49,215 nt of DNA from Candidatus Woesebacteria bacterium (GTDB lineage Bacteria; Patescibacteriota; Microgenomatia; UBA8517): positions 1 through 49,215 of the forward strand of contig CAWASW010000003.1 of assembly GCA_963784785.1 (NCBI GenBank). Direction: 5' to 3'. The position numbers and the translations under genes were made by a program. The first letter of the stretch is position 1. Each line of letters starts with the position of its first letter. This document shows positions 5,617-22,821 of this stretch, piece by piece. Under the pieces are notes generated by a model. The model did not search any database. It saw nothing but the letters and a program-made list of their open reading frames with translations, and had not been told where the DNA came from.

Positions 5617-5695
5617 TTTGGCACATACAAAATATTGTGTCAAGAGGAAAGTTTAACGTATAATTATATTATGATAAGAAATGAGCCCTCTGTAA

Positions 5696-6213
5696 AAATA
5701 AAAAACACATGGCATAAATGCCATGGTTTTACCCCTTCTGTGGCATACTTTCCACTTGATTTTTAATGTATTTTTTAACCTGGATGAAACTTGTTGCACC
5801 CACTGATTCTGCAAAGTAGCCATCAGACCAGAATGAGTCACCCCAAAGAAATTCTTCTAACTCTGGAAATTCTTTCCTTAAGATTCTTGATGAACCACCT
5901 TTCAGTTGGTTAACAACTTTTGAGATGGACAAGTTTGGTTGGATTTGTATAAGCATATGTACATGATCATGCAATATTGTAATTTCTTCAATCCACCAGT
6001 TGTTAACCTCACATGCTTTGAAGAATAAGTCTTTAAGTCTTGTAGCTACTTTGCCACGTAATATCCTTTTTCTGTATTTTGGTAAAAATACCAAATGAAT
6101 CATAATTCTGTGCTTTGTGTGTGCACCATGCCAGTACTTTAACATTTCCCTCAAGTATGCCACAAACTATACTTGCTCCACCAGCCTAAAGGCTGGGGAT
6201 TAATGTGCAGAAG
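5696..6213 (-). mobile_element. IS200-type element, copy A (tnpA only)
   Basis: 518 bp, identical by eye to 35350..35867 and 36415..36932. Hairpins lie near both ends (CCAGCC-TAAA-GGCTGG near 6184, CATGGCAT-AA-ATGCCATG near 5708). It is flanked on the tnpA-upstream side by TTAAAT. Confidence 0.85.
5729..6163 (-). CDS. tnpA: IS200/IS605-family Y1 transposase TnpA
   Basis: 144 aa with the HVHMLI (HUH) motif and a C-terminal SDGYFAESVG (catalytic Tyr region). Confidence 0.9.
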   Translation of the reverse strand: MAYLREMLKYWHGAHTKHRIMIHLVFLPKYRKRILRGKVATRLKDLFFKACEVNNWWIEEITILHDHVHMLIQIQPNLSISKVVNQLKGGSSRILRKEFPELEEFLWGDSFWSDGYFAESVGATSFIQVKKYIKNQVESMPQKG

Positions 6214-6252
6214 ATTTAAGGCTAAACAAGTGACCGTTTATGCAACGGTATC
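6214..6252 (-). mobile_element. Truncated copy (first 39 bp) of the 195-bp MITE, cut by IS200 copy A
   Basis: The reverse complement reads GATACCGTTGCATAAACGGTCACTTGTTTAGCCTTAAAT, identical to the first 39 bp of 7660..7854 and 21069..21263. Confidence 0.75.
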
Positions 6253-6256
6253 TATG

Positions 6257-6340
6257 CGGAGGAGGCGAGATTCGAACTCGCGAGGCTGTTAAGCCGCAGA
6301 CTTTCCAAGTCTGTGGAATGAACCACTATCCGACTCCTCC
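6257..6340 (-). tRNA. tRNA-Ser (anticodon GGA)
   Basis: Hand fold: acceptor GGAGGAG/CTCCTCC, anticodon stem CAGAC/GTCTG with loop TTGGAAA, long variable arm, T arm GCGAG-TTCGAAT-CTCGC, discriminator G. CCA is not encoded. Confidence 0.85.
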
Positions 6341-6374: not shown

Positions 6375-6818
6375 TTATGCTTTTTTCTTCTTTTTATTCT
6401 TTTCCCACTCTTTAACCATGGAGTTTGCAGTCTTTAACATATCCTTTTCTCTCTTTAGCTTAATTTTTTTTGCAGCTGTTGCATAATCATACCAAGAGAT
6501 ATCACCCATTCCAGAGATCTCAATTCCTGCTTTAAATAACAAAAGATAATAAATGTATTTATGAGTTACAGGTTTACCATTTACTGTACCTGCTCCACTT
6601 GATCTTCCTACTTCATCCAAAACCCTTGTATTCATATTTCCCTGTTCTGAAGTGTATCTAATCACCGCTCTAACTGAAGATTCACCTCTTCTTACGACAG
6701 ATTTTAATATTTCAAAATCACCTTCATTATTTTTTGAAAGTAAAAAAAGTTTTTTATCCTTGCCTTCTTTAAAAATAACTGCCCCACCTACCAACAGTTC
6801 GCCTTTTTCATTTTTCAT
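6375..6818 (-). CDS. Hypothetical protein, possibly Nudix-fold with a degenerate Nudix box
   Basis: 147 aa. GESSVRAVIRYTSEQG loosely resembles GX5EX7REUXEEXGU. Lys-rich tail. Confidence 0.35.
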   Translation of the reverse strand: MKNEKGELLVGGAVIFKEGKDKKLFLLSKNNEGDFEILKSVVRRGESSVRAVIRYTSEQGNMNTRVLDEVGRSSGAGTVNGKPVTHKYIYYLLLFKAGIEISGMGDISWYDYATAAKKIKLKREKDMLKTANSMVKEWEKNKKKKKA

Positions 6819-6914
6819 AGTATGTGTATTTTATCACGAAGTAACAAGCTTTGCTTATCATGTTTATATGTTTGAAGGGTACTTCCAAAAATATAGAAGA
6901 TTTTGTAAAAAAAA

Positions 6915-7568
6915 TTATTCTTTTTGTTTTCGCACATTCCATTTTTCCTGGTATTCTAATTTCACCTTTGAAAGCTTGCCTCCCTTTTCAATTTTCTTCA
7001 TAGTTTCCGTATCTACAACATCCTTTATTAGTCTAAGAAAAGGATCAGAATCAAATAAATCATCACAATAGTAAGGATTTAGCAAATAATCACCGTCACC
7101 CCATGTACTAAAATCAGCAGTATTATGTTGAATAAGTACTTCAATTTTATCAATTGCTTTCGCAAATTTTGCTTCCGGCGTTATGCTTTCTTCAAAATCA
7201 GTCCACAATTCAACTATTTCATCCGACAATTTCTTATCACTTAAATAATCTGAAATTTTTCGTATTGCATTTGACTCATCCTCAAATTTGCTGTCTTTCC
7301 TGGTAGATACCTCAAATGCTGGAATATCTCCTACAATTGTCTCAGCAAGGTCGTGAACAATAATGATCTTCAGCACCTTTAGTTTATCTAATTGCAATTT
7401 TACTTTTTCCATAAGTACTAGTGCCAACAAGCACATCATCCAAGTGTGTTCAGCCACACTTTCTCTTCGGTCACTATTACTTGTCCACGAATGACGCATC
7501 TCGGTCTTTAGCTTCTCAGCCATGTTTATAAAGGTAAGCACTCCCATGATTTCGTTTTTTATTTCCAT
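6915..7568 (-). CDS. HD-domain phosphohydrolase (YfbR-like 5'-deoxynucleotidase type)
   Basis: 217 aa. ESVAEHTW...IIIVHDLAETIVGDIP gives the H...HD...D signature. Confidence 0.7.
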   Translation of the reverse strand: MEIKNEIMGVLTFINMAEKLKTEMRHSWTSNSDRRESVAEHTWMMCLLALVLMEKVKLQLDKLKVLKIIIVHDLAETIVGDIPAFEVSTRKDSKFEDESNAIRKISDYLSDKKLSDEIVELWTDFEESITPEAKFAKAIDKIEVLIQHNTADFSTWGDGDYLLNPYYCDDLFDSDPFLRLIKDVVDTETMKKIEKGGKLSKVKLEYQEKWNVRKQKE

Positions 7569-7659
7569 ATTTTTATTTTTAACAAATCAAGTATACCAAT
7601 TTATACGTATTTAATACTACTATATTCGTTTTATGTTATCTATCGTTTTCAAATTGCGG

Positions 7660-7854
7660 GATACCGTTGCATAAACGGTCACTTGTTTAGCCTTAAATGA
7701 TTTGTTGTTTTTCGTTAAAATAATAACACTTTCGTCCGATTACTCGGACAATGCTGAAATTGGTTGTAGAAGCGTTTACTTAGTGAAACTACCTTTTTAG
7801 GCCGAAAGTATAGTAAAATCAGTGTGTTTTAGGAGACCGAAATGTAACGGTCTC
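7660..7854 (+). mobile_element. 195-bp MITE-like element with imperfect terminal inverted repeats and a 9-bp target duplication
   Basis: Identical by eye to 21069..21263. Ends are GATACCGTTGCAT and ATGTAACGGTCTC (11 of 13 complementary). Flanked by AAATTGCGG (7651..7659) and AAATTGCGC (7855..7863). Confidence 0.75.
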
Positions 7855-7857
7855 AAA

Positions 7858-8082
7858 TTGCGCCAATTTACGAATCGGCGCGAACTTTCTTTCAGACCGC
7901 AGTCTGAAATACAAACATAGTTTAACATGATCGTTTGCATTCTCCAAGGGAGGGGTCAAAGGGGAAGGAATTGGAGGATGCTCGACTCGGGTTTGTTCGC
8001 TCAGCCACTGCGTGGCTTCGCTTAACGCATATGATCGGAAGCTTCAGCTCACCCCACTCCGTGGGGTTCGCTAACCCAATTG
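7858..8082 (+). repeat. 225-bp repeat, copy 1 (inverted partner at 18212..18436)
   Basis: My hand alignment of the reverse complement of 18212..18436 finds identity everywhere except 8027..8048 and position 8059. Confidence 0.9.
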
Positions 8083-8496
8083 AAAGGAAAAGGGGGTTTA
8101 TAGTCAGTTCGCCTGCGGGCTCCTGACGGGTAGTTAACGGTGTCAGGAAGATGGTCCATCGACTCCGTTAACTGGCCGTATTTACGGCCTTTTGTCCGTG
8201 TTACCGTCCAGCGGACGGTTAACGGCTAGCCGTTGGGACAAAATTGGACATTAAACATGGACATTTCAGTCGCAATTTGCCCTGTCGGGCAACCACCCAA
8301 GTGCTAGTACACAGAGTGCTTACGCACAGCACTTGGTTAGGAAGCTACAGGCACAACAGGCATTGCTTCCTGAAATATCCCTTGTCAGGGATCCTGCCCA
8401 GCACAAAACACCCCAAAGCTACAGGGGTGTTGGCCTTCGGCCATGTGCACGGGCAGGAACAGGAACAATATAAGTCTAGTAAAAACCTAGGTTTTT
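7858..8496. ncRNA. Candidate large structured non-coding RNA (class unknown, strand not established)
   Basis: About 55% G+C in counted lines, versus about 35% in a background line. No protein-like ORF. More than 15 perfect local or nested helices, listed in the corresponding finding. Confidence 0.45.
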
Positions 8497-8660
8497 GAAA
8501 GGTATTAAAGTAAGAATTACAGCTTGTTCACAGAAAGTTGTTCTAGTTAAAACATTTCATGTTAAATGCCAACTAAACCATTTCGGTTGTATTTATTTTT
8601 ACTAGATTTGTATATGCAATAACGATTTTTTCATTCTTGTTCGTATTACATATACCAAAA

Positions 8661-8858
8661 TTATATAGGATTTCTACCTGCACGATACATAACAATAAGT
8701 CTTGTGCCCTTACCATCATGCCTTCCACTTGGTATTACAATTTCATTTTCTAAGACACCACCGCTATAATCTAGTTTCTTATCAGAATCAGTTTCAACTT
8801 CATCTGTGTTTGCATTCAGATTTTCTTTTTCGTCATCTGTTATTTTATTTTCAGTCAT
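8661..8858 (-). CDS. Small acidic hypothetical protein
   Basis: 65-aa ORF only. No recognisable motif. Confidence 0.3.
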   Translation of the reverse strand: MTENKITDDEKENLNANTDEVETDSDKKLDYSGGVLENEIVIPSGRHDGKGTRLIVMYRAGRNPI

Positions 8859-8883
8859 AATTTATCACCTCTTTTCAAACCAA

Positions 8884-8907
8884 CAAAAAACCTCCCTTCG
8901 GAGGTTT
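8884..8907 (-). terminator. Rho-independent terminator (minus strand)
   Basis: AACCTCC-CTTC-GGAGGTT hairpin followed on the minus strand by T6. Confidence 0.6.
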
Positions 8908-9107
8908 GAAATGCATAGCATCTAAACCCCCGTTAGGAAGTAAATAAAAATGCAAATGTATTTACTTCGTTAGAAGCAAACTTGTTTATTGATTTCATCT
9001 GCCAAGTATAGCAGACTTTTTTTCTTCGTCAAATGTATGTATATTGTGTTCACAGTTCACGCGGATGATTATTTTAACTTAGAAGTTCAACAACAACATA
9101 TTCTGAT

Positions 9108-9887
9108 CTATTTGATTTCAATTAAATACTTCGCAAGAATTGGAGCAACACTAAGATTAGCCTTTTTATTGGGATGTGAGTCCCAAGGTAGAAGTCTTGT
9201 ATATTCTTTCTTTAAAAATCCATTTTCATCAGCGAGTAAACTGTAAAAATCAAAGACATAAATATTTTTAGAATCTCCTGTAAATTCTTTTGAATTTAAC
9301 CAATCTACTAATTTCTTTGCCCTTATAGCTTGGTCTGTGTTTGTAGTTTCTTTTCTTGCAGGTGGAGGTGTAAAAACTATAAATTGTTTGTTTGGATATT
9401 TTTTGAGATTATCTCTAATTACTTTATAGTATCTAATATCTTCTTCAAGTTGTTCATTTGTGGCAATTCTTGTTGTAGGATAACAGTTTTTAAACGCTAT
9501 GATATCGTAATTTAGTATTGATTTAAGTGTCGAATCATTTGGATCTCTTGAAAATATATCTGCATATTCTTTTGGACTATTATTACTCAAAACTATATTG
9601 TAATCAGCCCCTGTTATTTCCCCATTATTATCACTTAAGCCTTTGTGGTGTGTGAAGTTTGATAATAATTTAGGAAAGTATTTATACAGGTTATAACTAT
9701 GATCCCAGAATTCAATTGTTGAATTTAACTTTTTAATTTCATTTCTTAAATCACCCTCTTTAATTAAGTTGCCACCAGTTGAATGGTGGATAAATAAAAT
9801 CTTTTCTGTCGCTTCTTTTGCATTAATTGTTAATGGAGTAAACATAAATATTAAAAATATGATTAATAACAATCTTATTTTCAGCAT
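9108..9887 (-). CDS. Secreted hypothetical protein
   Basis: 259 aa. N-terminal signal-like MLKIRLLLIIFLIFMFTPLTINA. No motif I can name. Confidence 0.55.
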   Translation of the reverse strand: MLKIRLLLIIFLIFMFTPLTINAKEATEKILFIHHSTGGNLIKEGDLRNEIKKLNSTIEFWDHSYNLYKYFPKLLSNFTHHKGLSDNNGEITGADYNIVLSNNSPKEYADIFSRDPNDSTLKSILNYDIIAFKNCYPTTRIATNEQLEEDIRYYKVIRDNLKKYPNKQFIVFTPPPARKETTNTDQAIRAKKLVDWLNSKEFTGDSKNIYVFDFYSLLADENGFLKKEYTRLLPWDSHPNKKANLSVAPILAKYLIEIK

Positions 9888-10015
9888 ACATTAATCATAT
9901 CAAAAAAAGTAAGCTAAAATATTTCTGGCCTAATTTGTGTTAAACTTCTCCCAAAGTTAGAGGCTACTTGCAGCTTTGACATTTAAAAAATTCTATTCAA
10001 GGAAAGGAGACGGTT

Positions 10016-10363
10016 ATGTTCAGACGTTGGCTCTCAAAGTATTTTAGTTACTTTCTGGCAGGAGCAATCGTGATGGTTGCTGTCTATGCCATGATGTTTG
10101 AATTGACAAAATATCCATTTAATTGGAAATTTAGTTATTCAATCATTACATTGGGAATACTGAATGCAGGGCTTGCTTTTTCAGTATTTAAAAATAATTG
10201 GATGTTAGTTAAAGGAACTGCAGAACTTGCAACATGGTTGCCATGTATTGCAGTTGTATCATCCATTGTTTCATTATTGGTCAATGCAGATCCAAAACTC
10301 ACAATATTCCTTGTGATTGCAACTGGATTCGCCGAACTATTTTTGGTTTCACCTGATAAGTAA
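10016..10363 (+). CDS. Small integral membrane protein
   Basis: 115 aa with about four hydrophobic spans. GGAG precedes the ATG. Confidence 0.5.
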   Translation: MFRRWLSKYFSYFLAGAIVMVAVYAMMFELTKYPFNWKFSYSIITLGILNAGLAFSVFKNNWMLVKGTAELATWLPCIAVVSSIVSLLVNADPKLTIFLVIATGFAELFLVSPDK

Positions 10364-10398
10364 TAATAATATTTCAAATCTTACAAAAAGGAGATCCA

Positions 10399-10626
10399 AT
10401 GATAAACGATTTTAAAAACTTTCCCTCAAAGGAAAGATGGGTGATGATACGGTTGCTTTCATATCTCATCATCCTTGGAACGATTACTATTATTGTTCCT
10501 GAAGCAATTGAGTGGACGGGAACTGTTCAACTTATTTTCGCAACAACAGAGTTGATCTATGTTCTTCGTAAACCGCGTCAAAAGCCGGTAGACATGCCAC
10601 TTGAACTTGAAGACTACGATAAATGA
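10399..10626 (+). CDS. Small integral membrane protein
   Basis: 75 aa with two hydrophobic spans. AGGAG precedes the ATG. Followed by a strong terminator. Confidence 0.5.
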   Translation: MINDFKNFPSKERWVMIRLLSYLIILGTITIIVPEAIEWTGTVQLIFATTELIYVLRKPRQKPVDMPLELEDYDK

Positions 10627-10634
10627 CCACTAAA

Positions 10635-10666
10635 AACCCAATCAAAACACCGATTGGGTTTTTTTA
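10635..10666 (+). terminator. Rho-independent terminator
   Basis: AACCCAATC-N8-GATTGGGTT followed by a T-run. Confidence 0.75.
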
Positions 10667-10685
10667 ATGTCTAAAAATTTTATTT

Positions 10686-10901
10686 TTATCCCTCTCTACT
10701 TCTTAAAAAACAATGAAATTCACAACCATTACAATTGCCCACAACTTTTACTTTTTTAATATCATTCTCTTTAACTCCCAACAAGCCAGCTGCAACCTTA
10801 GTTTCTCCAAGTGATTTAATATTGTCTTTTAAACAAATTGTTTTATCACATGTTTCCTCACGAGTTACATTGTCTACTGTTATTTTTAATCCTAAAGGCA
10901 T
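10686..10901 (-). CDS. Small Cys-containing hypothetical protein
   Basis: 71 aa with a C-terminal CNGCEFHC. No family assigned. Confidence 0.35.
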   Translation of the reverse strand: MPLGLKITVDNVTREETCDKTICLKDNIKSLGETKVAAGLLGVKENDIKKVKVVGNCNGCEFHCFLRSREG

Positions 10902-11203
10902 GAAAGGTATTGTAAGCTAAAGATGATGAAATACAAATGAAGAAGTAAATTGAAGTTCTTGCAAGTTCCGATAGGTATAATTTTTTAGATTATATTGATC
11001 CTATCGGAACTGCATTTTACATACTTATCTAATATATTCAATAAACCAATATGACGACTGTCATATTATTTTCAGATCACAAAGATCTAGGTTTAGAAAA
11101 CATTGATCAGATAAGCATCTGTCTTGCAAAAATAATTTAAAATAATAGTAACAAATAATTACAGATCAAGGTGAGATTAAATCCCTCCTCAATCTTCTTC
11201 GAA

Positions 11204-11530
11204 CTACGAAAGTTCTTTATCTTCACCTTTTACAGTGTCGAGATTATTTCGCCTGATTGTTTCTGATTTTCTGATCGTAACGTCATACATAAGAATTCCT
11301 GCAAGCAAGAACTCTACAAATGCAGCCGCCACGATTTGCCAAAATTCATTCCAGATAATCTGCCCAAACGCTTGAATAAGCGATAAAAGAGCAACTTCTG
11401 CAACGAAGATTGTGAAGAATAACAGGAACGCATGTTCCTTTGTTTCACTCTTGCTTTTAATTGTTGATTTGATCAACCCACCAAGTGCAAGCGAAAACAC
11501 AATTCCAATCATCCAATATATAATGTTCAC
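11204..11530 (-). CDS. Integral membrane protein
   Basis: 108 aa with three hydrophobic spans. GGAG upstream. Confidence 0.5.
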   Translation of the reverse strand: MNIIYWMIGIVFSLALGGLIKSTIKSKSETKEHAFLLFFTIFVAEVALLSLIQAFGQIIWNEFWQIVAAAFVEFLLAGILMYDVTIRKSETIRRNNLDTVKGEDKELS

Positions 11531-11546
11531 TTCGGACTCCTTTTAA

Positions 11547-11924
11547 CTAGGTATTCCAGTCGTACTTGATCATGAACGAAAAAACCAATATCGGGATAAA
11601 TCCCAATATCATGAACGATGACATCGCTGCGGAGGCAATTACCCACCAAGCCATGCCAAAGCCCAATGTTAGAAATGTTGCAAACGCCCAGAGAAGGAAA
11701 AACCTTCTTTTCCCGAACGATGCTTGGTCCATGTAAACCGCGAGAATTCCAGATAACGCCACTAAGAACCCAGAGGGTAACAGTTTTACAACATCTGCAA
11801 AACCAAAATCCTCAGGCAATCTTTCAGTGGGCGACACCAAAGTTCCAACGATGATTGCATAGACAACAATTGCTAACAGTAACACTGTGAAGAACTTACC
11901 GAACCGATTCAGTTTGTGTTCCAT
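11547..11924 (-). CDS. Integral membrane protein
   Basis: 125 aa with four hydrophobic spans, adjacent to the previous gene. Confidence 0.5.
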   Translation of the reverse strand: MEHKLNRFGKFFTVLLLAIVVYAIIVGTLVSPTERLPEDFGFADVVKLLPSGFLVALSGILAVYMDQASFGKRRFFLLWAFATFLTLGFGMAWWVIASAAMSSFMILGFIPILVFSFMIKYDWNT

Positions 11925-12206
11925 TTTCTTCTCCTTATATAATGTTTGAACTTACCAAGTCCAGACATAGTTTAAATATGCCCAGAATTGGCAAGTCCAA
12001 TTCATATTGAGAAATTATTTTGCAAGACTGTTAAAGAGCAAATTTAGCTTTAAATAACACTGCAATAGTGTGTTTAAAGTACTAAAAGATTAGCACAGAA
12101 AAGGTCAAAAGTCAATATTATGGGGTACTTCAAAAGTACCACATAAGGTCCCCTTATAGGGTATTGCTTCTCAATTCCCCTAGTACTAATATTTAAATAT
12201 GCTGCT

Positions 12207-12494
12207 ATGAAAAATGAAGAAAATAGTTCTCCTGTAATTAACAAAGACACTTCAGAAGCAGTTGTTTCAGTCAGAAGTGTAACTGCTAAAAAACAAATTA
12301 GAGATTCAGAAGGTAGGTTTATTAAAGAAGGTGAAGTAAGCGTTCCTGCAATTTCCTTTTCAACTTCACAGAATCAAAATGTAAAAACTGGTGATGTACC
12401 TGATTTAGTTAGTTTAAAAGTTACTAACCCTCTTGTTTATATCAAAGCATGGTGGAAAAAGATAATGGCTAATGAAGGACTAGAGTATGAATAG
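12207..12494 (+). CDS. Hypothetical protein
   Basis: 95-aa ORF that ends exactly at the hairpin of the IS200-like element. Confidence 0.4.
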   Translation: MKNEENSSPVINKDTSEAVVSVRSVTAKKQIRDSEGRFIKEGEVSVPAISFSTSQNQNVKTGDVPDLVSLKVTNPLVYIKAWWKKIMANEGLEYE

Positions 12495-12495
12495 A

Positions 12496-13013
12496 CCCAC
12501 GACCTGACGGTCGGGGTTTCATTAGAACACAAACAGAGTTTGCCCTGCATCTTTTTTACCTTGGTTTTCTATGTACCTCTCTATCACACTTTTGTTTATT
12601 CCCACAGTTGATACAAAGTAGCCTTCAGACCATATTGATTCAGTCCCCCAGTACACATTTTTAAGGAATGGGAATTTTTGTTTTAAGAACCTAGCTGTAT
12701 TTTGTTTAATAATTCCTACAACTTTACCAACTGCAATAGTTGGCGGAATGGAAACAAGAAGGTGTAAATGATCTTTGTCATGATTTACTTCCTTAATATT
12801 TATCATTGGGTAATGTTCCTTAATTTCCGCCAACTTAATATCAAAGTATGCAAAAATTCCTTCATTAAAAATGTTCTTTCTGTACTTAGTGGCTATGACT
12901 ATGTGGTAATCACATTGGTACACGCAGTGTGATATGTAAATAAAGTCCATACATATATTTTACAACCAAAAAAGCTGCAGGGGTAACTCCATCCCACGAC
13001 CTTACGGTCGGGG
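12496..13013 (-). mobile_element. Second, unrelated IS200-type element
   Basis: A tnpA gene flanked by near-identical hairpins in direct orientation: CCCACGACCTGACGGTCGGGG (12496..12516) and CCCACGACCTTACGGTCGGGG (12993..13013). Confidence 0.7.
12522..12950 (-). CDS. tnpA: IS200/IS605-family Y1 transposase TnpA (divergent from the 144-aa copies)
   Basis: 142 aa. HLHLLVSIP (HUH) and SEGYFVSTVG (Tyr region). Confidence 0.85.
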   Translation of the reverse strand: MDFIYISHCVYQCDYHIVIATKYRKNIFNEGIFAYFDIKLAEIKEHYPMINIKEVNHDKDHLHLLVSIPPTIAVGKVVGIIKQNTARFLKQKFPFLKNVYWGTESIWSEGYFVSTVGINKSVIERYIENQGKKDAGQTLFVF

Positions 13014-13019
13014 ATTTAA

Positions 13020-13538
13020 GTGAGGAAGGTTAAATTCAAAGCCAAACCAATTACTGCAATTGCCATATCAGTTGCTTTATTCTCACTTGTTTTTGGATTA
13101 GGTGGAGTTGTATTCCCTACACTTTTCCCATTTTTAAATATTAATAATACAAATGAGGTTGTAGCTACAGATTCTCCAACACCAAGTTCTGATTGGAGAG
13201 AAACTGCATTAAAAGGAACCCTGAAGAAAACAACAAGTGTACCAATTAAATTCTTTCTTTTAACTTCCTCAGATGAAGCAGTTACATTACAAGCTCCTGA
13301 TTATATTACACTAGACAAACTAATTGGGAAAAGAATACTAGCAACTGGCAACTACTCACAAAAACAAAAACTTTTAATTATCCAAGATGTACAAGACCTA
13401 GAAGTTTTATCAACCACTCCCATTCCAATACCAACATCAACCCCAACAATTGCACCAACACAGACACCAACGCCTATTCCTACACCTATGCCTACAGTAG
13501 AACCAACCACTGTTTCAACAGAAACTCCAATAATTTAA
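13020..13538 (+). CDS. Membrane-anchored protein with a Thr/Pro-rich C-terminus (GTG start)
   Basis: 172 aa. N-terminal TM segment ITAIAISVALFSLVFGLGGVVF and a C-terminal TPIPIPTSTPTIAPTQTPTPIPTP low-complexity region. Confidence 0.5.
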   Translation: MRKVKFKAKPITAIAISVALFSLVFGLGGVVFPTLFPFLNINNTNEVVATDSPTPSSDWRETALKGTLKKTTSVPIKFFLLTSSDEAVTLQAPDYITLDKLIGKRILATGNYSQKQKLLIIQDVQDLEVLSTTPIPIPTSTPTIAPTQTPTPIPTPMPTVEPTTVSTETPII

Positions 13539-13558
13539 TTTGTAGTATAATAAACAAT

Positions 13559-14195
13559 ATGGACAGCGAAGACAGGCTCGATCAAAACATGAATGAGTTT
13601 TACGACGCAGATACCCATGTTTCTACGTGGGCTGATGTTTACTTCAATAATAAAGACGGTATATCAGAGATTGATCGAGGTGATATAAGAACCTTTTTCG
13701 AATATTGTGGTGCTACAGATAAGATTGAGCCAGAATTAAGAGAAAAGTTTTCTGCAAAGCATTATGGAAACAAATCCCGATCAGAAGCTATGGAAGCTGT
13801 ATGGGGGGGACAAATATAAAGAATATAGAGAATTTTGTAATAAATATATTGCTGAATATGAAGAACGAACAGGCAAGGAATTACCAAAAGTTGAATTTAA
13901 GCATGATGATAAACCTTCAACTTTTTCGAAAACAGAAGGCATGAGAGGATTCTTTGCAGATTTAACTGCATATTCTTTTGCTGACACAAACGAATACAAA
14001 TTTGAAACTTTAGATTTAGTTACAAGAGCCAGATTAAATAATGGTAAGGCAAGAGAAGATGGAACAAAGACAGAAAGATTTAGAGTTACCATCGAGGGTT
14101 ACAATAAAAACAAATCTTTTGAACCTGCAGGTTTTCCGCCTGATTTTCCTGAAAAAGCCTTAAGTTTTGTTCGTACTTGGAGTAGTGTTAAATAA
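13559..14195 (+). pseudogene. Hypothetical gene split by a +/-1 frameshift at a G7 tract
   Basis: ORFs 13559..13819 and 13764..14195 overlap in different frames across GGGGGGG (13803..13809). Removing one G fuses ...EAMEAVWGG to DKYKEYREF.... Confidence 0.45.
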
Positions 14196-14241
14196 TATTG
14201 ACCCCTTAGTTTAAGCTAACTCATTTATATATCCTATAACA

Positions 14242-14270
14242 TTGACAAATGGCTATTTTTATGCTATTCT
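14242..14270 (+). promoter_or_regulatory. Sigma70-like promoter
   Basis: TTGACA-17 nt-TATTCT, about 200 nt upstream of the 14476 gene. Confidence 0.4.
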
Positions 14271-14475
14271 GACTTCATAAATTTGGAGAAATTTCAGGTT
14301 CAATTTGCACCTAACTATTTCTCCTCTTTTTATTTATCTTGTACTTTAACAACTTCAAGATTTGAATTTTGAGATGAAGCTAACATTAAGAGTTTGTTAC
14401 AAACTAACAAATTTTTACAGTTAGTTTTGTCGAAATTTTCATATTCAATTAAAAATCAAACAAGGAGATGTCAGA

Positions 14476-15648
14476 ATGAGTAAGAGAAAGTTTGTAGTGC
14501 TTGCGTGGGACTGTGCAAATTGTGGAACGGAAAATCCCGGACCTAAGAAAACTTGCACACAATGTGGAAGCCCGCAACCAGAGGGAGTTAAATTTCATAC
14601 TCCGACTGGCGGATTCAAGGAAGTCACCGATTCTAAACAAATCGAAGAGGCCGAACGTGGTCCTGATGTTCATTGTCCGTTTTGTGGCACACGAAATGCC
14701 GATGGATCAGTGAAATGCACTCAATGTGGAGGAGAACTCAAGGGTGGCAAACGCAGAAAAACAGGTGATAGACCGGATACTGATCAGGATGAAGGAATTG
14801 ATAACGGCGAATACACAAAGAGCGAGGATCCAGAAACTGGATTGGTCTCTGATGTGTTGCCTTCTGTATCTTCTTACTCACCTGCTCGCTATTCATTACC
14901 TACACTTGATCGAACCAACGTTGTTGAAACTCTGCAAACTGCTATTAACAGCAGAGTGGTTCAGGTTGGAGGCTTGATTGCCATCGTAGCGCTTTGTTCG
15001 TGGCTCATCTGGATGCTTTTTTTCAATACGACCGTTGTACCTGTTACCTTAAATAATTTTCATTGGGAATTAAACATCCCTGTTGAAGAATATCTTTGGG
15101 TAGATGAATCAGGTTGGTCAGTTCCTGCGGGTGGCATCGAAACGAGTAGTGAAGAACGCACCACAGGTTATGAACAAAAGCAATCATGTGAACTTGTTTC
15201 AAAACGTGAACAGGTTGGCACGGAAGCATGCAATGGTCGTATGAAAGATCGTGGCAATGGATATGCCGAATGGGTCGAAGATCAATGCCCCAAGTACGAA
15301 GATAGACAAGTAAACGAATGTAAAATGGTTGACGATTACAGTCGCCCAATAAAACAAACGTATTACTACTATCGCATACAGAAATGGATTGTAACTCGCA
15401 ATGTTCCCGCGTCCGGCGATGATAATAATCCTGTTTGGCCTCCTGTTCTACTTTCACAAGGTGAACGCGAAGGTTTTCGCAGTCAGTTTTTCACCGTGTA
15501 TTACACTGATGAAAAAGGCGAAGGTCATTCACTCACAAGTATGGATTGGGATTGGTTTACCAGTCTATATTCTGGACAAGTTTGTCATGCTGACCGCAAT
15601 GGTTTCGGTGGGTTAAACCTCGGAATTGATTGCAGTCCTCAGCAATAA
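14476..15648 (+). CDS. Double zinc-ribbon membrane protein
   Basis: CANCGTEN...CTQCG and CPFCGTRN...CTQCG motifs, then the TM segment VGGLIAIVALCSWLIWMLFF and a Cys-containing ectodomain. GGAG upstream. Confidence 0.65.
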   Translation: MSKRKFVVLAWDCANCGTENPGPKKTCTQCGSPQPEGVKFHTPTGGFKEVTDSKQIEEAERGPDVHCPFCGTRNADGSVKCTQCGGELKGGKRRKTGDRPDTDQDEGIDNGEYTKSEDPETGLVSDVLPSVSSYSPARYSLPTLDRTNVVETLQTAINSRVVQVGGLIAIVALCSWLIWMLFFNTTVVPVTLNNFHWELNIPVEEYLWVDESGWSVPAGGIETSSEERTTGYEQKQSCELVSKREQVGTEACNGRMKDRGNGYAEWVEDQCPKYEDRQVNECKMVDDYSRPIKQTYYYYRIQKWIVTRNVPASGDDNNPVWPPVLLSQGEREGFRSQFFTVYYTDEKGEGHSLTSMDWDWFTSLYSGQVCHADRNGFGGLNLGIDCSPQQ

Positions 15649-15778
15649 ACCAAAAATAATTGAATATCTTGAAGCCTAGCGTGCAAACCACTCACATCTC
15701 CCAAGATGAAGAAGTTTGCACGTCCTTATATAGCTGTGTAGCTATACTGATGAGCTCAAAAAAGCGAAAAGGAAAAAT

Positions 15779-16768
15779 TTAAAAAGGCGGTTCTATCTCT
15801 TCTGACGATTCCATTTCTTCTTCGAGCATTTTGCTCATGAGTGATGAATATTCGTAACTATCAATAATTTTAGTTTTATTTTCAAGTAGTTTTTCATAGA
15901 ATTCTTTTACGTCTGAATCAGTTAAAATTGAATAAATCTGTGAGTTATTAATTGCAATTGATACTAATTCTCGTATCTGTTCATCAGTATAGCTAACATA
16001 TTTAGATAGCTTCGAGACAATTGCGTGCGATGACACAAAATTTGGACTGTTTCTTAATTTTAAAATTAAATTATTTTTGTCTTCCTCGACTTTAAGTTGT
16101 ATGTTCTTGTGATGTTCGCCAAAGAAATCTGATAATTTTATATAGAAAAATATTTTAGATTTTTTCTTCGTTTCCCATTCTTCAATTAAAAATGAATTCA
16201 GTAACGATCCATCTAGTGGAGATTTGAAATCTTTATCGTCACTAATAAAAAACAGGTCTTGATTATCTTCTAATTCGGATAACATCGTAACCCAATTTAC
16301 TGAGTCGCCATATGAACCTTGTTTGCCTGGTGGATTACCTAATTCATATCTAGTTTTTGCATCGTTATAATATTTTTCTGAATCAATTATTTGTGAAATT
16401 CCGAACAACTCATTTATTATTTCATCGGCTTTTAAAGTTCGTTTGTTTATATCGTTTTGTAGTTTTTCATCAAGGCTGTTTTTTAGTATTCTGAATTCTT
16501 TTAATACCTCTTTAATTTTTACAAACTCATCGTAAGATTTACAAATTTGAGGCAGGTTAATATCTATTTTTGAATCCTTAAATTTACCATACGCATCAGC
16601 GACTTTGTTATCTCTATTTCTTTTGACCTCGTCTATTATTTGTGAGGTAACTACAAGATTTATTTCGCCTTTTTTGATTAGAACAATCAATTTTTTAAGT
16701 TCATCAAGATCATCATTTGAGAAGTGGTAAAAATCAAGAAAGATATTGGCATCTACAAATAAATTCAT
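15779..16768 (-). CDS. PIN-like domain protein (DUF4935-like)
   Basis: The N-terminal MNLFVDANIFLDFY resembles the first acidic motif of PIN-like domains. The rest was not recognised. Confidence 0.45.
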   Translation of the reverse strand: MNLFVDANIFLDFYHFSNDDLDELKKLIVLIKKGEINLVVTSQIIDEVKRNRDNKVADAYGKFKDSKIDINLPQICKSYDEFVKIKEVLKEFRILKNSLDEKLQNDINKRTLKADEIINELFGISQIIDSEKYYNDAKTRYELGNPPGKQGSYGDSVNWVTMLSELEDNQDLFFISDDKDFKSPLDGSLLNSFLIEEWETKKKSKIFFYIKLSDFFGEHHKNIQLKVEEDKNNLILKLRNSPNFVSSHAIVSKLSKYVSYTDEQIRELVSIAINNSQIYSILTDSDVKEFYEKLLENKTKIIDSYEYSSLMSKMLEEEMESSEEIEPPF

Positions 16769-16830
16769 ATACGGCTATTTTACCACCAAGTTATTGAAAT
16801 TGTTTTTTGAAAGGTGTAAAAATAATTAAG

Positions 16831-16962
16831 GTGACAAAAGTTCAAATAAAAGAGCCAAAGGTAGTTAAACTCAATGATTTTTGGAGTAACTTCATTCTTT
16901 GGTTTGCTGCATTTGGTCTTGGAATAACAGTCAATATAATTATTAACTTTTTCAGAAGATGA
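16831..16962 (+). CDS. Possible small TM protein (GTG start) translationally coupled to the nuclease gene
   Basis: Hand translation gives VTKVQIKEPKVVKLNDFWSNFILWFAAFGLGITVNIIINFFRR, with its TGA overlapping the ATG of 16959 (ATGA). Not in the ATG-based ORF track. Confidence 0.25.
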   Translation: MTKVQIKEPKVVKLNDFWSNFILWFAAFGLGITVNIIINFFRR

Positions 16963-17480
16963 GTAACAACAAATTTGTTTTAGTTCCAATAGAGCTTCTT
17001 AAAAATTTAAAAGAACTTGCGAAAGATACAGAATATGAAGATGATGTAAGAAAAGTACTTGATTCAAGAGAAGCTATTGAGAATCATGATATAACTAAAT
17101 TACCAAAAACCGCAGTTGTTAAAAAAGTCATCGATGGAGACACTGTGGAGTTATTTAACGGCCTTGTACTTAGATATGTGGGAATGACTGCACCTGAAAC
17201 TGGAGAACCTTTTGAAAAAGAATCTACAGAGGCAAATCGAGACTTAGTTGAAGGCAAAGAAATAAAATTAAAATATGATAACTACACCTCAGACAAATTT
17301 GGCAGAATTCTTGCATACCCAATACTTCAAGATGGAACAAATGTATCAATTGAGTTAGTTAAAAAAGGTATGGCTGAATTAGTAATTTACCAAAAGCGGA
17401 AGCCATTTATTCATCAAGTTCAACTTTTAGAAGCACAAGAACAAGCAAATAAAAATAAGATAGGTATTTGGAAAAAATAA
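16959..17480 (+). CDS. Thermonuclease (staphylococcal nuclease/SNase-like)
   Basis: VIDGDTVEL...VLRYVGMTAPE...DKFGRILAY...GMAELVIY match the SNase fold motifs. Confidence 0.75.
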   Translation: MSNNKFVLVPIELLKNLKELAKDTEYEDDVRKVLDSREAIENHDITKLPKTAVVKKVIDGDTVELFNGLVLRYVGMTAPETGEPFEKESTEANRDLVEGKEIKLKYDNYTSDKFGRILAYPILQDGTNVSIELVKKGMAELVIYQKRKPFIHQVQLLEAQEQANKNKIGIWKK

Positions 17481-17505
17481 AAACTGATATAATCTTCACA
17501 AACAA

Positions 17506-18114
17506 ATGAAAAAACTAATCTTTGGAACCACAAATGAAGCAAAGATAAAACAAATTAGGGGTGCTTTGGCTCCTGCTGGTATTTATGTGAATGGAGTTCT
17601 TGATAAAAGTATGTTGCCAGAAGTTATTGAAGACGGAAAAACAGCAAATGAAAATGCAAGGAAAAAAGCAATTGCATATGCAAAAGTGTTAAGGAAGACA
17701 GTCTTTTCAATGGATGTTGCAGTTTATATAGATGGTTTATCTGAAGAATTACAACCAGCACTAAATGTTAGAAGAATCCCAAACAGTGTTGGACGCCCAT
17801 CAGATGAAGATTTAATTAAATATTATTCTAAAATAATTGAGTCGCTTGGTGGTACGGCAACTGGAACAAGTGAATATGGAGTCTGTATTGCCACTCCAAA
17901 TGGAGAATTTAGAGAGTCAACAATAATGATTCCAAGAAAATTTGTTGTTCCTGCTAGTCCAAATCGTCAAGAGGGATACCCGCTATCATCATTAGTTGTT
18001 GATTCAGACTCAAACACATTTATGGCAGACATGAATCAAGACGAACAAGATTTATATTGGCAAAAACTTGTTGGAGATAAATTGATAAATTTTGTTAAGT
18101 CTGTGGAGTTTTAA
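17506..18114 (+). CDS. Non-canonical purine NTP pyrophosphatase-like protein (HAM1/RdgB family)
   Basis: N-terminal FGTTNEAKIKQI motif and a size of about 200 aa. Confidence 0.5.
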   Translation: MKKLIFGTTNEAKIKQIRGALAPAGIYVNGVLDKSMLPEVIEDGKTANENARKKAIAYAKVLRKTVFSMDVAVYIDGLSEELQPALNVRRIPNSVGRPSDEDLIKYYSKIIESLGGTATGTSEYGVCIATPNGEFRESTIMIPRKFVVPASPNRQEGYPLSSLVVDSDSNTFMADMNQDEQDLYWQKLVGDKLINFVKSVEF

Positions 18115-18211
18115 GAACAACAGCTTCTGTTGTATAAAATAAGTATCTTTAAGATTAAATAAGTATTTTATGTTATTAGTAAGCGTGGGCTGGGTATTAG
18201 GACATCGAACA

Positions 18212-18436
18212 CAATTGGGTTAGCGAACCCCACGAAGTGGGGTGAGCGGAGAGTCCGACCATATGGAGTTAAGCGAAGCCACGCAGTGGCTGAGCGAACA
18301 AACCCGAGTCGAGCATCCTCCAATTCCTTCCCCTTTGACCCCTCCCTTGGAGAATGCAAACGATCATGTTAAACTATGTTTGTATTTCAGACTGCGGTCT
18401 GAAAGAAAGTTCGCGCCGATTCGTAAATTGGCGCAA
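18212..18436 (-). repeat. 225-bp repeat, copy 2 (inverted relative to 7858..8082)
   Basis: See copy 1. All differences lie in 18246..18267 and at 18235. Confidence 0.9.
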
Positions 18437-18494
18437 AATCCCGAGCTGGCGGGTCGGAGCGAAGCGACGACCAAGCCATTATCCCGTCCCCTCG
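18432..18494 (+). repeat. 63-bp inverted repeat, left arm, flanking the serine recombinase gene
   Basis: CGCAAAATCCCGAGCTGGCGGGTCGGAGCGAAGCGACGACCAAGCCATTATCCCGTCCCCTCG. It is the exact reverse complement of 20035..20097. Confidence 0.9.
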
Positions 18495-18585
18495 AACAAG
18501 CACAAACAACACAATAAGGAAGCAAAATATTGCGATATTTTGACCACTTGATTTGGTTTATTTACGGGCGTATAAATGATAGTAG

Positions 18586-20199
18586 ATGACTACAATTGTA
18601 AATAACCCAAATCAACAGAAATACTTCATATATGCAAGGAAGTCTACAGATGTAGAAGAAAAGCAAGTGCAATCTATTGAAGGTCAACTTGATGAGTTGC
18701 ATTTGCTTGCCAAGAGAGAAAATTTAGAAGTTATTGAAGAATTCATTGAAAAACAATCAGCTAAAATTCCTGGGAGACCAGTTTTCAATAGCATGATTAA
18801 TAGAATTGAGAAAGGTCAGACAAATGGAATTCTCTCTTGGCACCCAGACAGACTTGCGAGGAACTCAGTTGATGGAGGTAAAATAATTTACCTCATTGAT
18901 ACAGGCAAGATATCTGCCCTCAAATTTAACACCTTTTGGTTTGAACCCACTCCTCAGGGTAAATTTATGTTGTCAATTTCCTTTGGGCAGTCAAAATATT
19001 ATGTGGATTCGTTAAGTGAAAATACTCGTCGTGGGTTACACCAAAAAGCTAGAAATGGATATTTCCCAGGAGTTGCACCTTTGGGGTATATTAACGATAC
19101 TCGTAACAGAACTATCGTTGTTAATAGAAAAATTGCTCCAATTATTACTAAAGCATTTGAAATGTATGCAGAGGGAAATATCCAAATAAAAGAAGTTGCT
19201 AGCTTTTTGGAACAACAAAAGGTGTTAAGGAAAAATGGTAAAAGAATTAGAGAAGATGTAGTAACTATGATTTTAAAAAAGTTATTTTACACAGGACTCT
19301 TCACCTATGCAGGTGAAGTATATGAGGGCAGACATGATCCAATAATCTCAAAGAAACTTTTTGACAAAGTCCAAGAGGTTTTGAATTTTAGAAACGCACC
19401 ATGGAAATATGCCAATATAGAAAGAATTCAAAAACCTTTTCTTGGACTTTTAAGGTGTGGTGAGTGTGGCATGATGATTACTGCTGATTTTCAAGTTAGA
19501 CATTATGTAAATGGTAGTTGTGGCTACTTTAATTATTATAGATGTAGTAAAAAGAATAAAAGTATAAAGTGCCAACAACCCCATATCCGAGATATAGATT
19601 TAGAGCCACAACTCACCACACTACTCAAAAAGTATACTTTGAGACAAGATTGGGCTAATCAGATGCTTTTGAAATTAAAACAAGAAGAATCTGATGTCGC
19701 CAAATCCTCCCTTGAAGTTAATAATTTGAAAAGACAACAAGTTGAAGCTATTGATGTTAAGTTAAAATTGTTGTTAGATAGTTACTTAGATCAAATAATT
19801 GATAAGGATGTTTTCCAAGAAACAAAACTTCAACTTGTATCTCAAAAGAAAACTTTTGAAGAACAAATTATTAACAATAAAAAACATCAAGGGAGTTGGA
19901 TCGAACCCATGAAACAATGGGTTCTTGAGGCTCAAACAGTACAACAAGTTGCAGAATCTGCGGATCTGCAACTTAAAAAGGTCCTCGCCGTTAAAATCTT
20001 CGGCTCGAACCTCTTTCTAGAAGACAAAAAACTCCGAGGGGACGGGATAATGGCTTGGTCGTCGCTTCGCTCCGACCCGCCAGCTCGGGATTTTGCGGAG
20101 GATGCAGGATTTGAACCTGCGAAGGGATTGCTCCCTCGAGTTTTCGAAACTCGTGCAATAGGCCGCTATGCGAATCCTCCAAATATACGTAGTACATGA
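18586..20199 (+). CDS. Large serine recombinase (resolvase domain, recombinase domain, zinc ribbon, coiled coil); native C-terminus uncertain
   Basis: YFIYARKSTDVEEKQVQSIEGQ (catalytic Ser region), HPDRLARN, CGECGMMITADF...YYRCSKKNKSIKC zinc ribbon, then a coiled-coil region. There is no stop codon before the right repeat, so the last ~55 codons are repeat plus antisense tRNA sequence. Confidence 0.85.
   Translation: MTTIVNNPNQQKYFIYARKSTDVEEKQVQSIEGQLDELHLLAKRENLEVIEEFIEKQSAKIPGRPVFNSMINRIEKGQTNGILSWHPDRLARNSVDGGKIIYLIDTGKISALKFNTFWFEPTPQGKFMLSISFGQSKYYVDSLSENTRRGLHQKARNGYFPGVAPLGYINDTRNRTIVVNRKIAPIITKAFEMYAEGNIQIKEVASFLEQQKVLRKNGKRIREDVVTMILKKLFYTGLFTYAGEVYEGRHDPIISKKLFDKVQEVLNFRNAPWKYANIERIQKPFLGLLRCGECGMMITADFQVRHYVNGSCGYFNYYRCSKKNKSIKCQQPHIRDIDLEPQLTTLLKKYTLRQDWANQMLLKLKQEESDVAKSSLEVNNLKRQQVEAIDVKLKLLLDSYLDQIIDKDVFQETKLQLVSQKKTFEEQIINNKKHQGSWIEPMKQWVLEAQTVQQVAESADLQLKKVLAVKIFGSNLFLEDKKLRGDGIMAWSSLRSDPPARDFAEDAGFEPAKGLLPRVFETRAIGRYANPPNIRST
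20035..20097 (-). repeat. 63-bp inverted repeat, right arm
   Basis: Exact reverse complement of 18432..18494. Its outer 2 nt overlap the 3' end of tRNA-Ser(CGA). Confidence 0.9.
20096..20180 (-). tRNA. tRNA-Ser (anticodon CGA)
   Basis: Acceptor GGAGGAT/ATCCTCC, anticodon stem CGAGT/ACTCG with loop TTCGAAA, long variable arm, T arm GCAGG-TTCAAAT-CCTGC, discriminator G. Confidence 0.85.
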
Positions 20200-20255
20200 A
20201 GAGGATAAGCATAAGTCGCTTATGCGAATCCTCCAAATACATCCGAATATCCTTG

Positions 20256-20327
20256 TGCATTCGACAGGAATCGAACCTGTATCCTAACTTCCGCAAAGTT
20301 ATGTTCTATCCGTTGAACTACGAGTGC
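20256..20327 (-). tRNA. tRNA-Arg (anticodon GCG), one acceptor-stem mismatch
   Basis: GCACTCG...CGAATGC acceptor (one C-A mismatch), D stem GTTC/GAAC, anticodon stem TAACT/AGTTA with loop TTGCGGA, T arm ACAGG-TTCGATT-CCTGT. Confidence 0.65.
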
Positions 20328-20421
20328 CAATGAGTAGATCAATGAACAAGATTGCTTACTACGAAGTAGCAAGTTTACTTATCCGTTGAACTACGAGTAC
20401 CTAATCTGAATTATAACTTAT

Positions 20422-20934
20422 TTATTGGGGAAGTTTTTTTGAAAACCAATCAACAGCTTTATCGAGATTAGATGGAGAAATTTCTTCTTCAACCAAATAT
20501 TCTTTCAAAGTTTTCTCAATTTCTCCTTTTACCTCATTTTTGATAACAAGTTCCATTTTATTTGGAATCATGTTAGTTTCAATAATTAATAAAGTACTAT
20601 CAAATCTATTTGAAAACCAAAATCTACCCAATAATTGCCAGTCAATTCTTCTACCTCCTACTTTTATACCTTTATTTGTAATTTTATATTCAATATCTTC
20701 AGGGGCTACAGTACTCATTACGTAATAAAGAAAAATTAAGGAAATTATGAGTATCACAGGCATTGCACCTTCTGCCAAGAACAATATTAAACAAACCATT
20801 CCAGCAATTGAAATTGTGGTCACGTAAAATTGCTTATCCCTTCTCTTAAAAGGTCTCGCTGGAGCTACCCAAGTAACTAAATCTTTCTCTAATTCAGGTT
20901 TTAAAGTGCTTTCATTTTGATTGGCAGGATCCAT
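20422..20934 (-). CDS. Membrane protein, hypothetical
   Basis: 170 aa with two adjacent TM spans (ISIAGMVCLILFLAEGAMPVILIISLIFLYYV). Confidence 0.5.
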   Translation of the reverse strand: MDPANQNESTLKPELEKDLVTWVAPARPFKRRDKQFYVTTISIAGMVCLILFLAEGAMPVILIISLIFLYYVMSTVAPEDIEYKITNKGIKVGGRRIDWQLLGRFWFSNRFDSTLLIIETNMIPNKMELVIKNEVKGEIEKTLKEYLVEEEISPSNLDKAVDWFSKKLPQ

Positions 20935-20976
20935 ATCTAATATTATACCTACTATCTGTTATAATTGCACTTAATT

Positions 20977-21063
20977 GGTGGAGTCGCATAGCTGGCCCAT
21001 TGCGGGGGATTGCTAATCCCCTGAGTAGCAATACTCGCGTGAGTTCGAATCTCACCTCCACCG
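20977..21063 (+). tRNA. tRNA-Ser (anticodon GCT)
   Basis: Acceptor GGTGGAG/CTCCACC, anticodon stem GGGGA/TCCCC with loop TTGCTAA, long variable arm, T arm GTGAG-TTCGAAT-CTCAC. Confidence 0.85.
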
Positions 21064-21068
21064 CAAAA

Positions 21069-21263: not shown

Positions 21264-21271
21264 ACCGCAAA

Positions 21272-21964: not shown

Positions 21965-22116
21965 TACAGGTTTTATTTTAATATCTACAAGAATATCAGT
22001 TCTTGTGTTCTTGATGATATAATACGTATTCTGGAAGATGGGCAGGACGGTAATGCGCGAGTCTTGTCAGCCAAAGGCTGATCCGCCTTTGGCGGAAAAA
22101 CTATAATTATTTATTT

Positions 22117-22200: not shown

Positions 22201-22201
22201 C

Positions 22202-22817: not shown

Positions 22818-22821
22818 TTTG

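Follow-up and report, generated by a model that had tools for sequence, protein, structure and literature searches.

What is the G+C-rich, gene-poor block found at positions 7858-8496 of contig CAWASW010000003.1 of a Candidatus Woesebacteria bacterium, and in which molecule does it act? An earlier reading made from the sequence alone (the sequence-only reading below) had proposed a large ornate non-coding RNA of no known class. Analysis of the whole 49,215-nt stretch (the window) and of related loci shows that the block is genuine: it is a conserved folded element without coding capacity, about 600 nt long, and belongs to a previously undescribed family whose hosts are Woesebacteria-like genomes (Microgenomates, candidate phyla radiation or CPR). 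The proposal therefore holds for conservation, lack of coding capacity and lack of an Rfam family, while RNA copied from the minus strand is what we infer to be most likely the folded molecule. The conserved element extends from 7858 to about 8465, within the 1.1 kb that separate an HD-domain gene (6915-7568, minus strand) from an open reading frame (ORF) of 65 amino acids (AA; 8661-8858, minus strand), and the closest tRNA gene, tRNA-Ser(gga) at 6256-6340, is 1.5 kb away. The 55% G+C first ascribed to the block is correct for its core (0.539 at 7942-8460), the value for the whole of 7858-8496 being 0.507; the flanks are at 0.345 and 0.313 and the window at 0.348. For 7840-8500, the minimum free energy reaches -254.4 kcal/mol (z = -7.6) when the plus strand is folded and -259.9 kcal/mol (z = -10.7) for the minus strand, and none of 20 shuffles was as low in either case. 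The description of the block as helix-dense is borne out, as nearly all the helices originally listed are found in place and both strands fold far below shuffled sequences. Two ORFs, 7935-8126 and 8244-8498, had been called non-protein-like, which they are, and the only ones, which is inexact, as three more of 46-47 AA are present. The two longest ORFs have no Pfam match, the concatenated six-frame ORF pieces of the block had no match among 5.8 billion proteins, and indels in the alignment of homologues have lengths that are not multiples of three; these three observations rule out a protein-coding gene or pseudogene. A perfect palindrome, AAAAACCTAGGTTTTT, lies at 8481-8496, just beyond the conserved 5' edge, and lacks conservation among the homologues.

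The conservation of the fold was established on homologues from metagenomes. We call Y the segment 7858-8082 (225 nt), which is present twice in the window, R the segment 8083-8496, which is single, and P the hairpin that terminates Y. A 20-mer of a conserved loop used as a query retrieved 61 metagenome loci (cited below by L numbers where needed), and further loci were reached via a recombinase gene described below. A profile search then gave 72 copies of two types, about 26 long (R' + Y') and about 25 short; the short copies have one common start, at a CAATTG boundary (profile position 451), and most of them are followed by Z' (an end repeat described below) and a recombinase gene. A homologue of the whole block, R included, is present in L085. 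There are 22 distinct full-length homologues, from groundwater and sediment metagenomes, which share 65% identity on average. Judged by GroEL, the window belongs to the Microgenomates/Woesebacteria branch of the CPR, the best relative having 88% GroEL identity; the block is absent from all 80 related GroEL neighbourhoods, and synteny with the closest relative stops just past GroES. Covariation was tested on an alignment of the 22 sequences (A3), using a local-helix RNAalifold structure of 116 pairs; A3 is a plain MAFFT alignment, and the covariation counts that it gives are probably underestimated in 8140-8260. Of the cells, 90.5% are paired, compared with 85.9% in shuffled alignments and 36-44% when partners are slid. 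Changes on both sides affect 34 pairs (shuffled, 19.8 +/- 2.5, with 0/500 shuffles reaching 34; slid, 12-20), compensated cells number 119 (shuffled, 37; slid, 24-30), and the covariation score is 0.183 (shuffled, 0.111; slid, 0.04-0.06). The homologues thus keep their helices with compensatory changes, which answers the covariation check named in the sequence-only reading, and a conserved fold with such changes is the generic mark of a structured non-coding RNA. RNAalifold also proposed long-range pairings of a pyrimidine loop; these were not accepted, as the columns are almost invariant, and this invariance is not informative because the homologue search required that loop.

The same data bear on whether the block could be a selfish repeat or an artefact, that is, a palindrome mosaic like the repetitive extragenic palindromes and bacterial interspersed mosaic elements (REP/BIME), a gene decayed after its arrival from a G+C-rich donor, or a chimeric assembly. 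The element is indeed repeated, many contigs break within Y, and separate R fragments occur in L117 and L109. Against this explanation, the helix order is collinear across about 600 nt in the 22 homologues, which come from independent assemblies and several sites and carry compensatory changes, no protein similarity is found in any frame, and there are 2-3 copies per contig, not hundreds. We therefore consider it highly improbable: REP/BIME repeats are ruled out by the collinear helix order and the copy number, and an assembly artefact by the recurrence of the layout in independent assemblies. Three contigs start inside Y, about 290 nt upstream of the recombinase gene, and such breaks are accounted for by a multi-copy repeat disrupting assembly. 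The isolated R fragments, L117 11365-11610 (profile 145-408) and L109 6001-6240 (profile 36-277), have no Y nearby and indicate that parts of the element are repeated on their own.

No known RNA class accounts for the element. With Rfam 15 at gathering score, the whole window gives only the tmRNA and four tRNAs (ARAGORN finds five tRNAs), a scan of 7500-8800 at E <= 10 gives only chance hairpins (mir-1990, Qrr and freshwater-1), and in six homologue loci scanned at E <= 1 the element has no match. Since the tmRNA was found, Rfam models work on this genome. The Rfam check named at the outset therefore yields no family: the absence of any covariance-model match in Rfam 15 sets aside membership of ROOL, GOLLD, OLE, HEARO, raiA, RNase P and group I/II introns. 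The tmRNA gene (123 bits) adjoins smpB (22819-23205 and 23212-23646, both on the minus strand). Phage and plasmid records searched by BLAST contain nothing similar to the block; in viral contigs the module pattern GTTAAGCGAA-N-TGAGCGAAC had one chance match, within a phage gene, and the recombinase search gave none. Exact look-up of the flanking proteins was uninformative. In the literature we found neither a structured RNA linked to large serine recombinases nor a large ornate RNA from CPR bacteria, one possibly relevant preprint not being covered in either case. The resemblance to ROOL (RF03087) and GOLLD (RF01998) pointed out earlier is justified for the link with tRNA genes and mobile DNA. 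Like the block, both classes fall in the range of about 500-800 nt, contain many nested helices, are G+C-rich relative to their host, and lie on mobile DNA (prophages in their case), often beside tRNA genes. The block nevertheless belongs to neither, as cmscan gives no match even at E <= 10; it also differs from them by its CPR host and because a serine-recombinase locus carries part of it as an inverted repeat, a feature not known from ROOL or GOLLD.

Read on the minus strand, the element is composed of three domains in R followed by the Y core and the distal part of Y (Table 1). In the 5' domain (A3 helices 1-4), 12 of 22 pairs show changes on both sides. In the second domain (helices 5-10) the helices are 87-99% paired, 5 and 10 covarying while 7-9 are nearly invariant; within its composite hairpin, 8340-8293 has a GUAA-capped tip (8327-8316) and 8292-8277 a GACA loop. 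The MAFFT alignment is poor in parts of the third domain, in which helix 15 (8127-8118/8113-8104) shows compensatory changes in 7 of 10 pairs and helix 12 in 4 of 7. The other best-supported helices are 8017-8012/8008-8003, 8457-8452/8398-8393, 8451-8444/8405-8399, 8429-8424/8414-8409, 8392-8377, 8292-8277 and 8206-8200/8150-8144. In the Y core, the two modules first described as GCTC-hairpin-TTCGCT(T)AAC are real and read on the opposite strand as GCGAA-hairpin-UGAGC, with tandem sheared G.A mismatches. The hairpin 7976-7971/7947-7942 (helix 19) carries a 23-nt pyrimidine loop, UUCCUUCCCCUUUGACCCCUCCC, closed by CUCCAA/UUGGAG in some homologues and by GCAACAA/UUGUUGC in others. The stem of P covaries (alignment columns 801-828), and its outer 8 nt (7858-7865, TTGCGCCA on the plus strand) resemble a tRNA 3' end. 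Most of the helices listed from the sequence alone are conserved in the 22-sequence alignment, namely GTCAG 8103-07/CTGAC 8123-27, AGCCAC/GTGGCT, ACCCCAC/GTGGGGT, TTGCCC-TGTC-GGGCAA, CCAAGTGC/GCACTTGG, CCCT-TGTC-AGGG, and CTGCCC/GGGCAG enclosing CACCCC/GGGGTG and TGGCC/GGCCA. The helix GGAAGC/GCTTCC (8340-8370) is not conserved in most homologues, and GTTAACGG (8133-40)/CCGTTAAC (8165-72), although present, is replaced by another hairpin in many of them.

Is the block a free-standing, single-copy gene? Comparison of the window with itself shows that it is not, as Y is repeated in reverse complement 10 kb away: the 225-nt end of the block is one arm of an inverted repeat, the second arm lying next to a serine-recombinase module at the 3' end of a tRNA gene. 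All eight differences between the two Y copies of the window fall in a 21-nt patch between the G.A modules. The recombinase module is minimal: it ends in 63-nt perfect inverted repeats, called Z (18432-18494 and 20035-20097), and carries a single ORF of 537 AA (18586-20199) with Resolvase, Recombinase and Zn_ribbon_recom domains, that is, a large serine recombinase, the relatives of which number in the thousands in the CPR. This ORF runs via the right repeat into the antisense of the tRNA-Ser(cga) 3' end, which gives the protein a variable C-terminal tail. CG is present on both module flanks (TTGG[CG]CAAAAT... and ...ATTTTG[CG]GAGG), and the joined ends of the module are predicted to form a perfect palindrome centred on CG, a palindromic attP, with an excised-circle junction that would read ...GGGATTTTG-CG-CAAAATCCC.... 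The att sites of large serine recombinases are double-stranded, of 40-50 bp, with imperfect dyad symmetry about a 2-bp crossover; this pattern fits only the terminal 25 bp or so, at the P end (..ATTGG[CG]) and in the module arms (..ATTTTG[CG]CAAAAT..), and does not account for the other 600 nt or so. Close relatives of the recombinase lie in a constant order, Y-like region, P, Z', recombinase, Z and a convergent tRNA, the latter being Ser-cga, Ser-gct, Ser-tga, Arg-tct, Leu-caa, Tyr-gta, Gly or Ile. Full block copies are also found beside other recombinases, in L127 (6531-8561, 46% identity) and L109 (1230-3372, 40% identity), where one recombinase gene is co-oriented with the block and the other convergent, which suggests that the P end attracts several recombinase lineages.

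Upstream of the recombinase ORF, 18517-18585 contains a palindrome, CAAAATATTGCGATATTTTG, and after it TTGATT-N17-TATAAA and an ATG with almost no leader. Palindrome, promoter and start are near-identical in more than 12 loci whose recombinases share only 67-90% identity, and the recombinase promoter is probably autoregulated. As the module has its own promoter, Y' is the landing place of the module and not its leader; the conserved promoter and near-leaderless start rule out Y' as the leader of the recombinase mRNA. This bears on a broader possibility, that the block is a cis-acting leader or processing platform, which would equip a downstream tRNA separated from its operon by the insertion, or else the recombinase, with a structured 5' leader and an outward-facing promoter, and would be released by RNase P cleavage at the tRNA. 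In L102, L104, L125 and L088/L091 a co-oriented tRNA starts 105-129 nt past the loop, about 20 nt past P, and in L127 the full block is directly upstream of the recombinase gene, as such a role would predict. Most block-type copies, including that of the window, have no tRNA after P, the block of the window being followed by a miniature inverted-repeat transposable element (MITE) and the HD gene. These arrangements, together with the recombinase's own promoter, make a leader function decidedly unlikely.

The two Y copies delimit a recurrent arrangement. From tRNA-Ser(cga), the window contains the recombinase module, the short Y copy, about 10 kb of cargo and the block, and maps of the multi-copy contigs L102, L123 and L126 repeat this layout. 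Read along the strand of the recombinase gene, a long copy (P Y R) comes first; 6-10 kb of cargo separate it from a short inverted copy (S' Y' P), after which come the recombinase module and the tRNA. Within these contigs and the window the Y copies are 92-97% identical, compared with a between-genome median of 68%, and in all four each copy has the other as its nearest relative; the two copies evolve in concert and are kept homogeneous in each genome. A third copy in L102 abuts the 3' end of tRNA-Ser(tga) without an intervening recombinase, and there the outer half of P is the complement of the CGCCA end of this tRNA; the end of the block in the window is alike. The empty site is provided by L084, in which tRNA-Arg(gcg) and tRNA-Ser(cga) are followed, after about 60 nt, by an ORF of 146 AA that is 86% identical to window 6375-6818. 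In the window these two landmarks are parted by the segment from about 6840 to 20095, which contains the recombinase module, the cargo, the block, a MITE-like insertion and the HD gene. The block thus lies in a variable region of about 13 kb anchored at the 3' end of tRNA-Ser(cga). A tRNA cluster occupies 20095-22201, with three tRNA-Ser (cga, gct and tga) and tRNA-Arg(gcg), and these genes are arranged differently in L084; tRNA genes appear to be rearrangement breakpoints in this lineage.

Table 1. Positions in the window of the parts of the folded element (listed along the minus strand) and of the features associated with it
Feature	Position	Strand	Remarks
5' domain	8393..8465	minus	outer helices 8457-8452/8398-8393 and 8451-8444/8405-8399; inside, hairpins 8441-8432 and 8429-8409
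Second domain	8263..8392	minus	hairpin 8392-8377 (GACA loop) and a long composite hairpin
Composite hairpin	8376-8370/8269-8263 + 8366-8362/8276-8272	minus	encloses 8340-8293 and 8292-8277
Third domain, rest of R	8083..8262	minus	variable AT-rich linker at about 8234-8262; hairpins 8233-8222 and 8189-8174
Third-domain helices	8206-8200/8150-8144; hairpin 8127-8118/8113-8104	minus	the latter is the best supported
Y core	7942..8082	minus	two GCGAA-hairpin-UGAGC modules, 8071-8047 and 8021-7999, with a variable patch between them
Distal Y	7858..7941	minus	AT-rich linker, hairpin 7890-7909, terminal hairpin P (7858-7885)
X, MITE-like insertion of 196 nt	7660..7855	plus	against the outer end of the block; outside the conserved element
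Short inverted Y copy	18212..18436	plus	96.5% identical to 7858-8082
Serine-recombinase module, 1.67 kb	18432..20097	plus	between the short Y copy and tRNA-Ser(cga)
tRNA-Ser(cga), anchor of the inserted region	20095..20180	minus	3' side empty in L084

Several properties point to RNA read from the minus strand, the opposite of the plus strand that the sequence-only reading had considered. The minus strand is the more stable in 19 of the 22 homologues (mean -7.4 kcal/mol, p = 3e-4), and its loops are mainly of the G..A type (GAA, GUAA, GACA, GGA and GUUA; 72 G..A loops). Across the element, tandem G.A mismatches flank 69 hairpins on the minus strand and 10 on the plus strand (69 and 0 in Y), and GCGAA occurs 48 times on the former and six times on the latter. 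A G+C content of 0.51-0.54 in a genome at 0.35 also favours RNA, as does R, which has no inverted partner and is still conserved with nested multi-helix domains. We accordingly favour, with confidence and doubt in about equal parts, the view that a serine-recombinase island anchored at a tRNA gene carries a large structured RNA, and that the 3' arm of this RNA doubles as one of a pair of inverted repeats. Such an RNA would be read from about 8465 to 7858, with a unique 5' part, R', made of the three domains, and a 3' part, Y'-P. By a speculative analogy with ROOL and GOLLD, which are found in phages near tRNAs, the island may carry this RNA for its own maintenance, and the shared Y-P arm might double as a DNA site of recombinase action, hairpin P being built on the tRNA CCA end.

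A number of observations weigh against this reading. In R alone, the bias of the tandem-G.A hairpins is reversed (0 on the minus strand vs 10 on the plus strand), and for Y+P taken separately the strands do not differ significantly in energy. In strand-neutral helices G.U and A.C are equally frequent (47 of each), about 90% of cells being Watson-Crick, and the structures predicted on either strand are similar in energy and G.U number. No promoter is found at a constant spacing from the 5' edge of the element, and P is not followed by a terminator. GNA triloops and GCGAAGC also form hairpins that are classically stable in DNA. Compared with L084, the far edge of the insertion is beyond the block, past the HD gene, so that the block is no more than a candidate for the end of an island. 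Finally, the inverted-repeat layout, the concerted evolution and the CG ends beside a tRNA CCA fit a role at the DNA level.

That last point leads to a different explanation, a DNA-level element. A mobile island, or else an invertible segment, would have the block and the inverted Y copy as its long terminal inverted repeats, and the conserved hairpins would form in cruciforms or in single-stranded DNA. There they might be sites of recombination or synapsis, provide a single-strand origin, or offer serine-recombinase genes a place to land, in parallel with integron attC sites and IS200/IS605 ends, which function as folded DNA. It agrees with the inverted pair that brackets 6-10 kb in the window, L102, L123 and L126, with an element end that is exactly at the tRNA CGCCA end, and with P ends that hold three recombinase lineages (100%, 46% and 40% identical to the window enzyme). 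The symmetry of G.U and A.C, the stability of the GCGAAGC and GNA loops in DNA, and the presence in the window of three IS200 copies with a Y1 transposase and of a hairpin-ended MITE are also in its favour. We nevertheless regard it as rather unlikely. Serine recombinases are known to use double-stranded sites of about 40-50 bp and not folded DNA, and R (415 nt) has no inverted partner, yet covaries with nested long-range helices. Moreover, a strong excess of G+C is what structural RNAs, and not att sites, typically show in A+T-rich genomes, and the folding energy differs between strands. Known folded-DNA sites (integron attC, IS200/IS605 ends, CTX attP) likewise conserve structure over sequence, have strand-specific hairpins and lie at the ends of mobile units, but they are of 60-150 nt and serve tyrosine or HUH enzymes, whereas the block is of about 600 nt, has nested domains and neighbours a serine recombinase. 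IS200-type TnpA genes are present in the window, none adjoins the block in the homologue loci, and no integron integrase was seen.

The structured RNA that we favour can also be compared with the RNAs linked to recombinases in insertion sequences. IS110 bridge RNA, IS1111 seekRNA and the HEARO/omega RNA of IscB are likewise structured non-coding regions that terminate a mobile element next to its recombinase or nuclease gene, with a hypervariable patch between conserved helices. In the block family, the neighbouring gene encodes a large serine recombinase instead of an enzyme of the DEDD or RuvC type, a promoter downstream of Y belongs to the recombinase module itself, and no Rfam match to HEARO is found. 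The variable patch has no complementarity to the flanking tRNA or junction that would suit a guide or bridge RNA, the matches to the tRNA region being only 4-7 nt long and patternless; it looks like a small covarying hairpin. This patternless complementarity and the serine-recombinase neighbour rule out an IS110-type bridge RNA. With tRNA-targeting integrative islands the region shares insertion at a tRNA 3' end, a tRNA-proximal recombinase gene and an empty site in a relative; it is unlike them in that the end repeats are inverted and not direct, and 225 nt long, and in that the recombinase lies in its own 1.67-kb inverted-repeat module.

The window contains other repeats. The MITE-like insertion X (Table 1) is 100% identical to 21069-21264, just past tRNA-Ser(gct). 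Its terminal inverted repeats can form hairpins, its target duplications are of 8 bp (CCGCAAAA and AAATTGCG), and its targets resemble tRNA 3' ends. A 39-nt fragment of X lies at 6214-6252, downstream of tRNA-Ser(gga), and is adjoined by the first of three identical copies of a 525-nt IS200/IS605-type element (5695-6219, 35349-35873 and 36415-36943), the sole gene of which encodes a Y1 transposase of 144 AA. A 47-nt inverted repeat, 93.6% identical, has its arms 6 kb apart, at 39622-39668 and 45619-45665.

Large, intricately folded bacterial RNAs without an assigned function are rare, and the classes OLE, GOLLD, ROOL, HEARO and raiA each opened new biology. The element described here offers at least 22 homologues, clear covariation, a defined genetic setting and an empty site in a relative, which together make its function testable. 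Should the fold act at the level of DNA, structural conservation of DNA beside a serine recombinase would be out of the ordinary. The recombinase module itself, with its 1.67 kb, 63-nt perfect inverted repeats, predicted palindromic attP with a CG crossover and tRNA CCA ends as targets, may be of interest for the mining of integrases for genome engineering. We also consider, as an unlikely but consequential possibility, that the Y-P arm (with R), as RNA or as folded DNA, is a nucleic-acid partner of serine recombinases, with a part in marking, pairing or regulating the ends of the island and the CCA-end site where several large serine recombinase lineages land. If this were true, it would be the first structured nucleic-acid component tied to large serine recombinases, and also the first large ornate RNA class from CPR bacteria.

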